Shown here: positions 11,471 to 61,086 of the stretch, piece after piece
How positions within the stretch are numbered: position 1 is the first letter of the stretch
Layout of the letters: each line of letters begins with the position of its first letter
Source: Eledone cirrhosa
Lineage: Eukaryota
Assembly: GCA_964016885.1 (NCBI GenBank)
Contig: OZ024745.1
Span: 84,258,001-84,322,000, forward strand
Direction: 5' to 3'
DNA length: 64,000 nt
Made by a program: the position numbers and the translations under genes
Notes under the pieces: generated by a model
The model's input: the letters and a program-made list of their open reading frames with translations, nothing else
What the model was told of the DNA's origin: nothing
The model's database searches: none

Positions 11471-12119
11471 ATTATTACTTTCAAAGTAAAGGGTGTCATG
11501 AATGATACAAAATCAAACATGTCTTGTCTCTAAAAACAGCTCAAGATAGAATTCAGAGAATAAAATCGAGCCTTAATCATTATAAGAAAGTGAATGAAAT
11601 ATATTCATAAGTTTGCACTAAGACATATCAAAACTTAGAACTAGAGACAATCTACACTGAAAGTAAGACTACATAATTCGTTGAGTATCTTATTAAATTT
11701 AATAAAAAGTTTAAAACAAAATACCTGATAAGGATCAAATATATTTCCCTCATATGTATTCTCCACAAAATCAGAATACATTTCACCAAAAAACGACGAA
11801 ATTAGATATTTTGAAACGGATCAGAGACAAGACATATGTTTGATTTTGTATCATTCATGACACCCTTTACTTTGAAAGTAAAAATAATAATATATCTGCT
11901 CCTTATTTGGTGAGCTGTTTATTGTCGAGAGGTCGGACTGCTATTTCTAGCGAACGAGAAGCCTCCATATTGTTGCGAGTGCTAAAATTCATGTGTTGAT
12001 ACCATGTACGTTTAGCCACTTTCAACCCTGCATTGAGTGAGATTAGATGATTTTTAAATTCCCTCACTGATGATCCGTTTCAAAATATCTAATTTCGCCG
12101 TTATTTGGTGAAATGTATT
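11468..12119. mobile_element. Nested inverted repeats carrying two partial copies of one hammerhead (PLE pLTR-like remnant)
   Basis: 11468-11531 inverted vs 11823-11890; 11775-11823 inverted vs 12072-12119; hammerhead 5' half on + at 12059, 3' half on - at 11745-11823. Confidence 0.7.
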
Positions 12120-12148
12120 AATATAGAATATATATATGTATATATATA

Positions 12149-13010
12149 CGAGGTGGGTCAGAAAAGTTCCAGGACTGATGTCACAAAAGATTTATTTCAA
12201 ACCCAAACTTCACACTAAGAGTTTTCTCCTTCAAAGTAATACCCCTAGAGTCTAATGCACTTTTCCATCTTTTTCTGCCACGCTTGCATGCACTCCAGGA
12301 AGAATTCTTCCGGGATCCTCCACAGATGTCGTCCACGTCTTCAAAACGGGTCTCCTCCGGGTCGTACTCGAAGATCCATGACTCATCACCGGTGATGACT
12401 GTCCCTAGCAAGTCTGGTTCGGTTTCAAGACGCTCGAGGATGTCCTGGCAGACTTGCATGCGTCGACCCTTCTGGTCATCGTTCAGCAGTTTTGGCACCA
12501 TCTTCGCGCAGACTTTCCGCATGTCCAAATCTTCAGTGAGAATCTTCCAGACGGTGTCCCGATTCATGCCCAGTTTATTTGCCATCAGTCGAACAGTCAG
12601 CCGACGATCGCTACGCACCATCTGCCTGACGCGCTCAACGTTGACCGCAATCCTGGTTGTTTCGGGCCTTCCGCTCCTGTGGTCATCTTCCACGTCCTCG
12701 CGTCCTTCTTTAAACCTCTTGCACCACTCAAAAACACGTGAGCGTGACATCGTCTCATCTCCATACACTTGCTGCAGCAATGCCAGTGCTTCTGACGGAG
12801 TTTTCAAGTTTGTTCGTTGCTCTGTGCTCATTGCTTGACGACCTGAAACAGAGGACATGTATATAAAATTATGAAGAAAAAAAGTTTGATCGCTGCAGAG
12901 AGGTAAGATTACAATTACATACTCCAGGAGATTACTTTGAAGGAGAAAACTCCTAGTGTGAAGTTTGGGTTTGAAATAAATCTTTTGTGATATCAGTCCT
13001 GGAACTTTTC
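12149..13010 (-). mobile_element. Mariner-family DNA transposon, internally deleted transposase
   Basis: HTH (VYGDETMSRSRVFEWCKRFKEG..RSGRP), KMVPKLL, ITGDESWIFEYDPE, then a jump to C-terminal sequence; preceded by TA; 80-bp inverted repeats 12161-12240/12931-13010. Confidence 0.92.
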
Positions 13011-13589
13011 AGTACAAACGGTTTAGAGCTCTCGAAGATCATTGTATTGTTATAATCGATATCATATCAGCCATTAATAAAGTATAGCACTCCGATACAT
13101 CATTATGGTAGTCAGATAGTCATGTATAGATGCGGCCGCGTACGAGATTATTAGTAAGACAGAATATCTCAACATATCTAAAAATATGAGGAATGTTCCT
13201 CTAATTATAAAACTTCAAGTATTTTATCCTTTTATCTGCATAATGAGACTTGTCATGCGGCTAAAATTAACAAGAGTTTGTGTTTTTGAATGACCACAAA
13301 CAATGTTCAAACTGGTGTTAAACTAAGAAATTACGGCAGCCACACGGAGAATTCGCATGATCAAAGAACTGCATAGACATTATCAAAAATATAACTGTTT
13401 AGATCAGTGTAATAAACAACTATTTTCACACTACGCTCAGTCAATTTTGTAGATCGTAATTTTGCCCATTTTAATGTGTTGGGCACACTTGTGTACCAGT
13501 AACAGTATATGAACCACTGTTTTGTTACTTGACTTTTTAATGACACACACGCTTTCACAGACATTCACACAAACACATATATATATATA

Positions 13590-13740
13590 TATAATTTACT
13601 GCATTAAATGCCCGAATTGTGAAGAACTATATGTCGGTCAAACTGGAAATGCACTATCGGAACGTGCACGGATGCACCTACAGCAAATCAGAGACGCAAA
13701 TGTCAGTCAGATACCCCTGAGTAAAATGCTATTTTCATCA
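13590..13740 (+). pseudogene. PLE GIY-YIG endonuclease remnant
   Basis: IYCIKCPNCEELYVGQTGNALSERARMHLQQI; hammerhead ~250 bp downstream on the same strand. Confidence 0.8.
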
Positions 13741-13985
13741 TTTCTAAAAATAGCAAAACAATTGATGGTTTGGATAGGGTCAAATAGTAGTCGTTAGACA
13801 TGCTCAACCAACCGTGACGCCTAAACCAATCAGCTTTAGGAATCCAGTGGATCTACACACCGATTGGTGGAAATACAGTTTGCAGAATCTAGCATTCTCT
13901 AGAGCTTTTCACTGTATATAAAGGCACAAAATTTACCCATCTCATTACAGTTGAAAATTGCAAACTTGACTGTCACCACAGAATA

Positions 13986-14024
13986 TGAACCTGAAGATTG
14001 CGAAAGCATGAAAGTACTTGTTCA
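13986..14024 (+). ncRNA. Type I minimal hammerhead ribozyme
   Basis: UGAAC-CUGAAGA-U UGC GAAA GCA U-GAAA-GUAC-UU-GUUCA; stem I UGAAC/GUUCA, palindromic stem III, CUU site. Confidence 0.8.
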
Positions 14025-14175
14025 ATTAACACTTAACATTTAATATTCTACCATACTATTTCATTCTAATACCATTAAAAATTTTAAAGGATTGTAAATA
14101 AAACGAGTAAATCAGACAAAGTTTGAATTCCTTTTATTAATATAATATTCTATACACAATCATACACACCCGTGT

Positions 14176-58422: not shown

Positions 58423-58817
58423 ACAATATTAAATAAATGGAAAACTATATTTATAAAACCATATTTATTTCATTATATATATTTCGGGGATATCATATTA
58501 ACAATATGCTATGCCTTCATCAGACAAAATACAATATAAACAGTTTTATAGATAAATATATTCGACATACCGTAATAAACATCAACTTCATTTGAAGAGG
58601 TTTACTCTAGCAGAGTAAACCTCTGACTGCTAGAGTAAACCTCTTCAAATGAAGTTGATGTTTATTACGGTATGTCGAATATATTTATCTATAAAACTGT
58701 TTATATTGTATTTTGTCTGATGAAGGCATAGCATATTGTTAATATGATATCCCCGAAATATATATAATGAAATAAATATGGTTTTATAAATATAGTTTTC
58801 CATTTATTTAATATTGT
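58423..58817. mobile_element. Palindromic mini-element, ~191-bp apparently perfect arms; hammerheads 58466-58531 (-) and 58709-58774 (+)
   Basis: 58423-58613 inverted vs 58627-58817; UAUUUUGU-CUGAUGA-..CAUAUU GUU AAUAUG..-GAAA-UAUAUA-UA-AUGAAAUA. Confidence 0.88.
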
Positions 58818-58904
58818 ATATATATATATATATATATATATATATATATATATATATATATATATATATATATATATATATATATATATATGTATGTATA
58901 TATA

Positions 58905-59690
58905 TATAAGTATGTATACATACATACATATATGTATACAGACGTACAGTAGTATATATATATATACATGCACACATATATATATGTACGTATGGATTCA
59001 CCGAACATTTATTATAATGCTCGGTTTGTTTGTAAACAAACACCCCGAATTAAGCCGTACAGTGTTTAGCAACCATCGTTGCCCTTTTGTTCAACACTGA
59101 CAAAGGAACGATGTACTAGTTTCAAGCTTGTTAGCTATCGTCAACACCGTAGACCTTCCTGCTAGATGATTGAACGTCTGCAAGTATATACTTTCCTTAT
59201 GCATATTAACGGCTGAGCAGCCTAATTTGCATATTGAGTGAGTTCATCGGCCGGGCGCACCGAAAACGATAAATGAAAAAAATGAAACGAAATTTCATTT
59301 CTCACTCTTAGTACAGCTGTTACTTAAATATAAGTATGTATACTTTCAGACGTTCAATCATCTAGCAGGAAGGTATACGGTGCTGACGATAGCTAATAAG
59401 CTCGAAACTAGTACATCGTTCCTTTCTCAGTGTTGAACAAAAGGGCAACGATGGTTGCTAAACACTGTACGGCTTAATTCGGGATGTTTGTTTACAAACA
59501 AACCGAGCATTATAATAAATGTTCGGTGAATCCATACGTACATATATATATATATATGTGTACATGTATGTATATACATACTACTATACGTATGTATACA
59601 TATATGTATGTACGTATACATACTTATATTTAAGTAACAGCCGTACTAAGAGTGAGAAATGAAATTTCGTTTCATTTTTTCCATTTATAC
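58905..59690. mobile_element. Family Y inverted pair, diverged subfamily; hammerheads 59107-59150 (-, U3) and 59377-59419 (+)
   Basis: 58905-59178 inverted vs 59348-59625; ACGGUG-CUGACGA-UAGCUAAUAAGCUC-GAAA-CUAG-UA-CAUCGU. Confidence 0.85.
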
Positions 59691-60089
59691 ATATATATAT
59701 AAAGGTAAACGAGATATCGTTTTGGGTTACCTTAGTTCAGGTTTGGAGTAATCTGTACCGAGGAGTATTTCAGCATACGTTGGTAGTTGATTCAACAAGA
59801 TGCTTTCTTAGCTAGGTTGTTCAAAGGGTAGTTCCCTGAAAGTTCCGTGATCAGTAGTTCTTGGAGTAGATATAACAGGTAAAAAGAGGATTAACACTGA
59901 TAAGATATATATAATAAACCCTATTATATCGCTTATCCATGTTAATTCTCTTTTTACCTGTTATATATATATAGAGAGAGTGAGAGATTTTGAGTATGCA
60001 GGCTGGAGCACTCGACGAAATGCGCAGGTTGGTTTGGTTACTCCGGAGTAATGTAAAATAATGTACTTGTCTATACCACACTAATTCGG

Positions 60090-60144
60090 ACTGCCTGAAG
60101 AGGTCACAGCCAAAGATGGCTGTCACTGAAATATATATAGCAGT
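60090..60144 (+). ncRNA. Family X hammerhead
   Basis: Near-identical to 30025-30079; 59992-60060 matches 28869-28937. Confidence 0.83.
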
Positions 60145-60219
60145 AATAAACGAAGCTAAATTTTAAACATTTGACTTTTTATTTAACTTTATATATATAT
60201 ATATATATATATATATATA

Positions 60220-61086
60220 TAAGTTGAAAAAAAATGAAAACGAAATTTCATTTCTCACTCTTAGTATGGCACTTACTTAAATGTAAGTATGTATGTATAC
60301 GTACATACATATATGTATACAGACGTACAGTAGCATGCATATATATATATATATATATATATATATATATATATATATATATATATATATATATATATAT
60401 ATATATATATATATATATATATATATATATATATATACATACATATATGCACGCATCGGTTTAGCCGACGTTTATTATAACGTCGCTTTGTTCGTTTGTT
60501 TGTCAACAAACCGAACAGCCTGAATTTATGCCATACGGTGTTAAGGCAACCACGTCACCTTTTTGTTCAACACTGACACAGGAATGATGTACTAGTCTCA
60601 AGCTTGTTAGCTATCATCAGCACCGTTTACCCATCTGCCAGATAGTTGAACGTTCGAAAGTATATACTTTCCTTACGAAAATTAACGGCTGAGCAGCCTA
60701 ATTTGCATATTGAGTGAGTTAAATCGTTCAACTATCTGGCAGATGGGTAAACGGTGCTGATGATAGCTAACAAGCTTGAAACTAGTACATCGTTCCTGTG
60801 TCAGTGTTGAACAAAAAGGTGACGTGGTTGCCTTAACACCGTATGGCATAAATTCAGGCTGTTCGGTTTGTTGACAAACAAACGAAAAAAGCGACGTTAT
60901 AATAAACGTCGGCTAAACCGATGCGTGCATATATGTATGTGTACCTGTATGCATATGTGTATATATATATATATATATATATATATATATATATATATAT
61001 ATATATATATATATATATATATATATATGCATGCTACTGTACGTCTGTATACATATATGTATGTACGTATACATACATACTTACAT
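60220..61086. mobile_element. Family Y inverted pair; hammerheads 60583-60627 (-, GAGA mutation) and 60750-60794 (+, intact)
   Basis: 60283-60653 inverted vs 60725-61086; matches 30146-30547. Confidence 0.87.

Follow-up and report, generated by a model that had tools for sequence, protein, structure and literature searches.

Background

In the parts of the literature covered here, head-to-head copies are described as the arrangement "most frequently observed" among insertions of Penelope-like elements (PLEs; PMC3846280), and a 5'-truncated copy in inverted orientation, tailed at one end, is given as typical of them (PMC8557442). The origin of these tandem and inverted insertions and of the one-sided tail was named an open question (PMC8557442), and the choice between a sense and an antisense template was left open (PMC3846280). 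In vitro, a purified PLE protein cleaves and extends both strands and starts internally at two sites that bound the tail; it uses uncleaved RNA, the ribozyme is dispensable and a dimer is predicted (PMC11167929). The present analysis concerns inverted repeats bearing hammerhead ribozymes in 64,000 nucleotides of the 3.0-Gb genome of Eledone cirrhosa (assembly GCA_964016885.1, contig OZ024745.1, positions 84258001-84322000), a stretch rich in (TA)n that is here called the window, together with related copies elsewhere in the genome. The two arms of a pair were found almost always to end at two different sites, one arm at each. The pairs are probably the product of coupled twin priming at two internal sites of a PLE RNA within (TA)n, the two cDNAs being joined end to end.

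Two end sites and their pairing

Each family possesses two sites at which the 3' ends of arms lie, a proximal site A and a distal site B that is 56-100 nt further. The sites are most readily described on the reference copy of family D:

39003..39141, plus strand: family D reference; +1 is 39003, a putative capped start with a TATA box about 30 nt upstream

In this copy the hammerhead occupies +1 to +51 and is cut after +45, site A lies at +56 to +73, site B at +132 to +141, and the ATG of the open reading frame (ORF) at about +182. Family I has site A at +61 and site B at +138, and the spacing is 56 nt in family K and about 65 nt in family C. Site A lies 11-75 nt beyond the ribozyme cut in short-tailed families and about 170-290 nt beyond it in families K and C.

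The pairing of an A arm with a B arm is the distinctive property of these units. More specifically, it was found in 33 of 33 family D pairs that had not been picked by their junction (30 called automatically, three by eye) and in 27 of 30 loci sharing one D junction, with no AA, no BB and three interrupted. Family C pairs an A arm with a B arm in 37 of 43 joined pairs (36 automatic, one by eye; no AA, no BB, six unclassified), family I in all 22 distinct joined insertions, and family K in all 16 finished pairs among 30 loci, the search for the latter being anchored in the tail and thus blind to AA pairs. Overall, more than 95% of the inverted units combine a tail with a tail-less arm. A second sample, 550 kb of arbitrary blocks in which 67 inverted pairs were examined and 24 could not be oriented, holds 62 pairs that touch (TA)n at an outer end; none of the 62 is symmetric, and 40 carry a tail of 23-110 nt on the other arm. 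Independent choice of sites would give AB pairs in at most half of the cases, and 27 of 27 would then have a probability of 7e-9.

The outer-end histogram of family D shows no end at the ribozyme cut (+45), and the element continues beyond site B into the ORF (window position 39141, L129 and L142). The priming sites are thus internal, and the RNA that was copied was uncleaved. The preliminary description of the window had the arms often ending just downstream of the ribozyme and had reverse transcription primed near the RNA 3' end. Priming near the 3' end is not supported, nor is any part of the ribozyme cut in fixing where arms stop: the outer ends of D all lie away from the cut, with site A 11-28 nt past it, and both sites are followed by further element sequence. 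On the putative capped transcripts, the distance of A and B from the RNA 5' end would be no more than 60-140 nt, and the copies run across the cleavage site. The cut was likewise rejected as a boundary at the other end of the arms, since only one of 162 family D arm 5' ends falls there and that one is explained by stem-I complementarity (L201).

Both outer ends of family D pairs lie in (TA)n in 72 of 76 cases (64 automatic, eight by eye). This agrees with two independent primings at a ribozyme-set RNA 3' end, possibly on two unrelated RNAs, a reading derived from the preliminary description, and so does the closeness of the D site A to the cut. Independent priming predicts, however, that at least half of the pairs should be AA or BB, and three BB and no clean AA were found among more than 150. 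The absence of outer ends at the cut and the run of the element past B count further against a ribozyme-set 3' end, and unrelated RNAs are contradicted by the two common subfamily letters of D, which are never mixed between arms (0 of 70 pairs). Such independent priming is considered very unlikely.

The pure TA runs that flank D pairs sum to a median of 62 nt, compared with a length-weighted median of 26 nt in arbitrary blocks; either a preference for long tracts or growth of the tract at or after insertion may be responsible.

In several unrelated families the tail opens with an RCTY...RAGY stem just past site A (window 39075-39141, 28832-28926, 44371-44460, 46886-46965 and 58332-58415), a candidate protein-binding element. 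A tail stem-loop motif was matched in 28 of 51 tails compared with 8% of shuffled ones, a figure to be taken as a lead only because the definition was post hoc, families were repeated and some matches lie inside the arm.

Template of the arms

The 5' ends of family D arms have a sharp upstream edge, with 40 of 60 falling in -2 to +10 and only two in -40 to -3. This pile-up lies 30 nt behind the TATA box and coincides with an initiator-like motif, which doubles as the opening base of hammerhead stem I. At 2,083 places the two bases upstream of D +1 differ from the templated ones. Among these, a G stands before +1 in 24 of 30 D loci examined (p=8e-12) and in 86 of 100 listed rows, the latter counted by eye; among the extra G's read by eye, 12 are explained by neither the partner arm nor the flank (four of these in solo copies) and four are ambiguous. 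As an independent case, family I exhibits a TATA-like box at about -30 and the G in 18 of 30 loci (p=5e-5). The extra G is present on both arms at eleven junctions (nine, and two from the family I set), where the arms meet bluntly or with 1-4 bases between them.

According to the part of PMC11702581 covered, an extra G in insertions of L1 is a trace of the mRNA cap. The extra G seen here stands behind a TATA box and belongs to the sense strand, which is an indication of a sense template; on these sequence signals the template is likely to have been a capped sense RNA. Arm 5' ends may thereby offer a means of mapping PLE transcription starts from DNA alone.

Family C presents a different picture, in that its arm 5' ends are spread over the entire unit without the pile-up of D and I. 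An octamer-like motif and a TATA-like box stand upstream of its hammerhead (60690-60790; L007, L030).

Two probable cDNAs and their junctions

Neither arm is consistently the longer copy. Among D pairs not picked by junction the arm extending further 5' is the A arm in 14 and the B arm in nine, the two being equal in seven, and in family C the arms that reach further are split 19 to 17. Most arms overlap, the extent ranging from tens to thousands of bases. Neither arm contains the other in 10 of 36 C pairs, and at L219, L225, L226 and L324 the arms have no sequence in common, the B arm consisting of the tail only and the A arm of the upstream part only. Of 75 directly joined D pairs, 50 show an overlap at the junction, 18 an insert and seven a blunt join, with 28-30 of the 75 having been selected for one overlapping junction. 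This junction is a 5-nt near-palindrome with a central mismatch and has 481 occurrences on both strands. Its asymmetric base lies on the B arm in 13 loci and on the A arm in 14, the outcome to be foreseen when identical ends of two cDNAs anneal and repair of the mismatch can go in either direction. The outer ends in (TA)n, the non-nested arms and the A+B pairs lend good support to the preliminary proposal that both ends of a break in (TA)n prime and that the two cDNAs join head-to-head.

The same evidence bears on self-priming or snap-back, in which the cDNA (or a copy of antisense RNA) would fold back on itself and an endonuclease would trim one end to give the one-sided tail. Antisense self-priming of this kind is proposed in PMC3846280 and endonuclease resolution of the tail in PMC8557442, in the parts covered. 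Many junctions are indeed near-palindromic, the arms end at nearly the same base in 30 of 76 D pairs, and 26 of 36 C pairs are nested as snap-back permits; it would also account for the concordance of subfamily letters described below and for B+B units, and fold-back on TA palindromes probably explains short tail-to-tail duplicates. A snap-back copy must, however, sit inside the first cDNA, which the 10 un-nested C pairs do not, and in 29 of 76 D pairs the tail-less arm lies further 5' without containment, a count that includes shifts of a few bases. The four pairs without common arm sequence largely refute it. The near-equal use of one junction in both directions argues the same way, as do the 11 double-G junctions, in which 0-4 bases are too short for a loop, and the position of the extra G on the sense strand behind a TATA box argues against an antisense origin. 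Snap-back as the general origin of the pairs is therefore unlikely, and coupled priming of two cDNAs is preferred.

The two arms of a pair appear to derive from closely related RNA. The subfamily letter agrees between arms in 68 of 70 D pairs compared with 47% expected, two of 81 pairs (one misaligned, one an old fragment) having been dropped from this analysis. Rare D changes are mostly arm-specific (62 private, eight shared), so that later homogenisation is not the cause of the agreement. In family C the divergence is 1.3% between arms versus 3.4% between insertions, and the units of one array are equally alike. This concordance fits copying of one RNA (a circular monomer in the case of C), and two RNAs from one locus fit equally. 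A phase test on tandem arrays gave 1.1% in phase and 0.9% shifted and did not separate one RNA from two.

An origin of the inversions after insertion, by replication template switching or repair, or as artefacts of assembly, also has to be weighed against these data. In its favour are the instability of TA tracts and of palindromes, the local duplication of some units (L159, L353/L354, L009-L012) and a few short inverted duplicates over TA tracts that look templated from a neighbour. On the other side, the second arm often holds tail sequence absent from the first and ends at family-specific sites, the mutations of the arms are independent, the flanking DNA is not duplicated, and one junction recurs 481 times on both strands. 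Such a later origin is exceedingly unlikely. Contigs from four sequencing runs at one hairpin showed no empty site, other copies having dominated the matches.

Polarity of the pairs

According to the preliminary description every inverted pair has the same polarity, with the 3' ends outward. This is overstated, as the window itself contains a tail-to-tail pair:

28085..28800: tail-to-tail exception; plus-strand copy 28085-28313 (hammerhead at 28205) and near-identical 52-nt minus-strand piece 28749-28800

The two copies are separated by (TA)n and a nested family K fragment, and both end at site A. The general tendency was upheld by a tally in the genome, taken over the first 100 matches of each of two hammerhead motifs and their opposite-strand neighbours within 10 kb, in which head-to-head pairs outnumber tail-to-tail pairs by 28:2 (p=9e-7) and 17:2 (p=7e-4). 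The arbitrary blocks contain 37 head-to-head pairs and six that were called tail-to-tail. On inspection, two of the six were real, one was an unoriented fold-back centred on TA, two were separate neighbours and one was an artefact. The tail-to-tail share of near opposite-strand pairs is roughly 5-10%; the head-to-head bias is strong and not absolute.

Two further tail-to-tail duplicates, similar to the one at 28.1/28.8 kb of the window, lie over TA tracts (G000:C12:15039384-15041867, 182 bp, 100%; G000:C2:200007385-200007486, about 50 bp), and the short convergent A+A and B+B duplicates are probably fold-backs on TA palindromes. At L062-L065 (G000:C1:11.816-11.823 Mb) a convergent A+B pair of family C has private variants in common and encloses about 2.3 kb of other DNA; it possibly fits a single event with nicks in two separate TA tracts.

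Identity of the elements

Several ORFs of the window carry reverse transcriptase (RT) and GIY-YIG motifs, and the units of families D, K and C illustrate the range of elements involved:

30582..43623: family D unit, a Hydra-type autonomous PLE; inverted 5'-truncated copy 30582-34088 ends at B
34078..35748, plus strand: family D ORF, C-terminal part of RT plus GIY-YIG endonuclease, with CxCx5C linker
49181..52249: family K unit, unlisted in the preliminary description; long minus arm with RT-GIY-YIG ORF 49781-51991, ends at B
60222..61084: family C unit, retrozyme-like tandem of about 505 nt; left arm at B, right arm at A

The right part of the D unit is a plus-strand partial tandem ending at A (43623), and the other side of the K unit is a short plus arm ending at A, 56 nt less. 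Pseudo-long terminal repeats (pLTRs) in the form of partial tandems occur at window 34088-43623 and at L129, L142, L316 and L319. An inverted 5'-truncated copy with a one-sided tail is present in the families tested, as in endonuclease-containing (EN+) PLEs. The intact D ORF (712 aa, L200) contains an RT and, at its C-terminal end, a GIY-YIG domain; these motifs were read by eye, the Pfam scores being below cut-off (RVT_1 E 2e-4; GIY-YIG E 0.006-0.03). For the RT-GIY-YIG ORF 1,541 homologues were found, and the D protein has 38-44% identity to the nearest database proteins aligned. A PDB sequence search with the element protein gave no credible match.

Family D resembles the Hydra clade in motifs read by eye (RWR, which is RWK-like, DKT, a CxCx5C linker, CxxC and CxH close to the end, and no CCHH) as well as in its short single ORF, canonical hammerhead and (TA)n insertion, and differs in its very high copy number. 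The family K ORF, also read by eye, shows a Neptune-like CX2-5CxxC linker and CCHH in the endonuclease; as this combination is common to Naiad and partly to Nematis, Neptune is only one candidate clade for K. Family I is present in high copy and retains a hammerhead-like GAAA, stem III and UC but has no CUGANGA core. Its ends are nonetheless of the A+B kind, with the extra G, and the ribozyme appears to be dispensable. Family C is a non-coding hammerhead unit of about 505 nt in tandem arrays. Judged by their sequence, the elements are new members of known PLE clades together with retrozyme-like derivatives.

A custom descriptor of the type-I hammerhead fold, run on 664 kb and on the reversed sequence as a control, found 65 folds in the former and none in the latter. 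Folds that resemble hammerheads but have a variant core (A or C as second base) occur repeatedly, in several families, and were absent from the reversed control. An Rfam scan of the window returned mostly microsatellite-like miRNA models, with no hammerhead in the best 150 of 249 matches.

The arms thus match RT-GIY-YIG elements and have asymmetric ends, and the preliminary assignment to PLE-type inverted-pLTR insertions is supported in preference to miniature inverted-repeat transposable elements (MITEs) or foldback DNA transposons, which would carry terminal inverted repeats and duplicate a TA target. The latter are suggested by the many TA-flanked hairpins of about 200 bp, by the abundance of these hairpins (the two hammerhead motifs have 16,924 and 10,391 exact matches in the genome) and by a Tc1/mariner remnant nearby (12161-13010). 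None of the 62 block pairs has symmetric ends, however, arm length and inner junction vary from less than 30 nt to several kb, the arms consist of pLTR sequence, 3' or 5', from RT-GIY-YIG elements, and the mariner remnant carries its own, unrelated arms, no matching transposase being found. The chance that the pairs are DNA transposons is negligible. It follows that in such genomes thousands of TA-flanked hairpins of about 200 bp, easily annotated as MITEs, would be products of retrotransposition.

Proposed mechanism

Under coupled twin priming, the GIY-YIG endonuclease would nick both strands within a TA tract, and one complex, probably a protein dimer on one RNA, would prime one 3'-OH at site A and the other at site B. 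The template would be the sense, capped, uncleaved transcript, in which A and B are internal. Each cDNA would then stop independently or run off the cap, copying it as the extra base, and overlapping arms may arise through strand displacement or from two sister RNAs. The cDNA 3' ends would be joined by microhomology of 1-7 nt, by blunt ligation or with a few added bases, after which each joined cDNA could act as template for the second strand of the other. MITE-like hairpins of about 200 bp would come from a start at the 5'-proximal pLTR, and arms of kilobase length from a start at a downstream pLTR on a read-through or tandem RNA. Completion of one side only may give a solo copy, and nicks in different TA tracts the rare tail-to-tail pair.

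A narrower form of this proposal, for which the chances appear evenly balanced, is that the system is two-headed by design, such that an RT-endonuclease dimer on one capped, uncleaved RNA uses two sites flanking a conserved stem-loop tail, one for each strand. If so, the dimer would displace its own first cDNA and join both cDNAs, and priming of a second strand would be unnecessary; moreover, the tail, the inverted pLTRs, the MITE-like hairpins and the retrozyme arrays would be outcomes of one mechanism across several PLE clades.

Several observations weigh against coupled twin priming or limit its reach. The A+B rule is not absolute, as B+B units occur at L313 and L315 (family K) and L353 (family D), and L178 combines an A arm with an interrupted arm. 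Tail-to-tail pairs exist at 28.1/28.8 kb of the window, in 2-3 of 43 oriented block pairs and at L062. Target-site duplications are unreadable within (TA)n. The transcription start and the cap are read from DNA alone, and eight of the 24 extra G's of family D are readable as the partner arm's own base. For overlapping arms a single RNA requires strand displacement, and the letter concordance is equally compatible with two RNAs of one locus. Many of the D and I loci were picked by their junction pattern, and most are from contig C1. In vitro, both strands used the same start sites and no coupling was reported in the part of PMC11167929 covered.

The A+B pairing, the non-nested arms and the double-G junctions nonetheless favour a sense, capped template over the published antisense self-priming. 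For the in vitro PLE system, they predict one start site per strand, anti-correlated within each molecule.

Further features of the window

Inverted arms were located by self-BLAST of the window followed by reading of the sequence. All ten inverted pairs of the preliminary description are present near the places given for them, each with the minus-strand copy on the left and the plus-strand copy on the right, and its statement that outer ends usually run into (TA)n holds for 17 of 20, the exceptions being 11475, which runs into (ATT)n, 12112 and 44729. The right arms at 12.1 and 44.7 kb terminate within the ribozyme. Three head-to-head units lie beyond the ten (47.7-49.2, 49.2-52.2 and 53.25-53.92 kb), and the 30.7/39.0 kb unit has its true end at 43623, as a partial tandem. 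The remaining units are as follows:

11475..12112: family J head-to-head unit, hammerhead-like tandem repeat of about 550 nt; site B, in (ATT)n, is the end of the minus arm (11475-11825), and the plus arm (11826-12112) breaks off within stem III
26190..28056: head-to-head unit of family I with (TA)n at either end; its left arm reaches B (77-nt tail), its right arm A
27996: putative transcription start of family I, TATA-like box about 30 nt upstream; unit without canonical hammerhead core
28832..30130: head-to-head unit of the 29.0/30.0 kb family; B is reached by the left arm (94-nt tail), A by the right arm; plus-strand hammerhead at 30030
44371..44729: hairpin of family F; its left arm reaches B in (TA)n, and its right arm is truncated within stem II
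46886..52781: family E unit enclosing two nested PLE units; its left arm ends at B and its right arm at A
47733..49172: autonomous relative of family I, an unlisted head-to-head unit; it contains a GIY-YIG fragment on the minus strand (48372-48773)
53252..53922: unlisted inverted unit; hammerhead-like fold (long stem II) at 53786, plus strand, read by eye
53960..54326: hairpin of family H; the left arm ends at A, the right one at B (61-nt tail)
58332..58816: hairpin of family G; both arms start from the same base, the left one ending at B (84-nt tail) and the right one at A
58909..59686: older unit of family C; the left arm is long and ends at A, the right one is short and ends at B, neither containing the other

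A complete type-I hammerhead fold is present in at least one arm of six of the ten pairs (29.0/30.0, 30.7/39.0, 44.5/44.7, 47.0/52.7, 59.1/59.4 and 60.6/60.8 kb). Folds were read by eye in the pair at 54.0/54.2 kb, with two changed core letters, and in that at 11.7/12.1 kb, with a long stem III; the latter was also considered as a MITE fragment, an interpretation that was dropped in view of its tandem hammerhead-like unit with A and B ends. The pair at 58.5/58.7 kb was oriented through homology to copies that pass the hammerhead descriptor. The 26.3/28.0 kb pair, which is without the CUGANGA core, was oriented by homology to the 3' untranslated region behind a GIY-YIG ORF (80% over 82 nt) and also from its TATA box and extra G.

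Among the other contents of the window, the Tc1/mariner-type transposase remnant at 12161-13010 has inverted arms of about 90 bp and lies at a TA to the right of the family J unit. A single-exon ORF of 426 aa at 17483-18763 (plus strand) may encode a seven-transmembrane receptor, which it resembles by eye. Broken RT ORFs of the long interspersed nuclear element type occur at 794-10100, 14469-16925, 20932-24358 and 62002-63769, and an additional GIY-YIG ORF with a CxCx5C linker at 794-1978 (minus strand).

Comparison with known systems

The comparisons that follow refer to the parts of the cited papers covered. The EN+ PLEs (PMC3846280, PMC8557442) share with the present elements the partial tandems, the inverted 5'-truncated copy next to the 5' end, the pLTR hammerheads, the predominance of head-to-head pairs, the often one-sided tail and the (TA)n targeting. 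Their tail is called optional and measures 30-40 nt, whereas here it is 56-100 nt and is paired with a tail-less arm. In addition, the published model is one of antisense self-priming, while here both arms can bear a cap-like G of sense RNA. Family D matches the Hydra clade (PMC8557442, section 11) by motifs read by eye, with RWR for RWK.

Animal non-LTR retrozymes (bioRxiv 10.64898/2026.07.22.740005; PMC4209133) are likewise non-coding hammerhead tandem units, as is family C, which is known here from DNA. Within one insertion the C units are alike to the same degree, a pattern that rolling-circle copying would produce. Because the C arrays show the A+B inverted ends of PLE type, they bear the mark of mobilisation by PLE machinery.

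The Anolis Poseidon system studied in vitro (PMC11167929) agrees with the present data in that both strands are cut and extended, two internal starts bound the tail, the RNA is uncleaved, the target is AT-rich and a dimer is predicted. No strand difference in start site was seen in that system, in contrast to the genomic data, which show one site per strand; in the main text covered, priming on two strands is not tied to inverted insertions.

Twin priming of L1 (PMC11702581) is alike in that the second end of the target primes internally, the products are joined head-to-head by microhomology or end joining, and full-length copies bear an extra cap G. In L1 the first primer lies at the poly(A) tail and the second at variable sites, and the segments abut with a deletion or duplication of just 1-10 bp. 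Unlike in L1, both sites here are fixed, internal and 56-100 nt apart, and the arms usually overlap fully, producing inverted repeats.

In the literature covered, to which older Penelope papers do not belong, no paper was found that ties twin priming, paired tail ends or a cap-derived G to PLE inverted repeats. Thus, the polarity, the TA targeting and the one-sided tail had already been published for PLEs (PMC3846280, PMC8557442), and what these elements add, relative to the parts of those papers covered, is the paired A+B rule.

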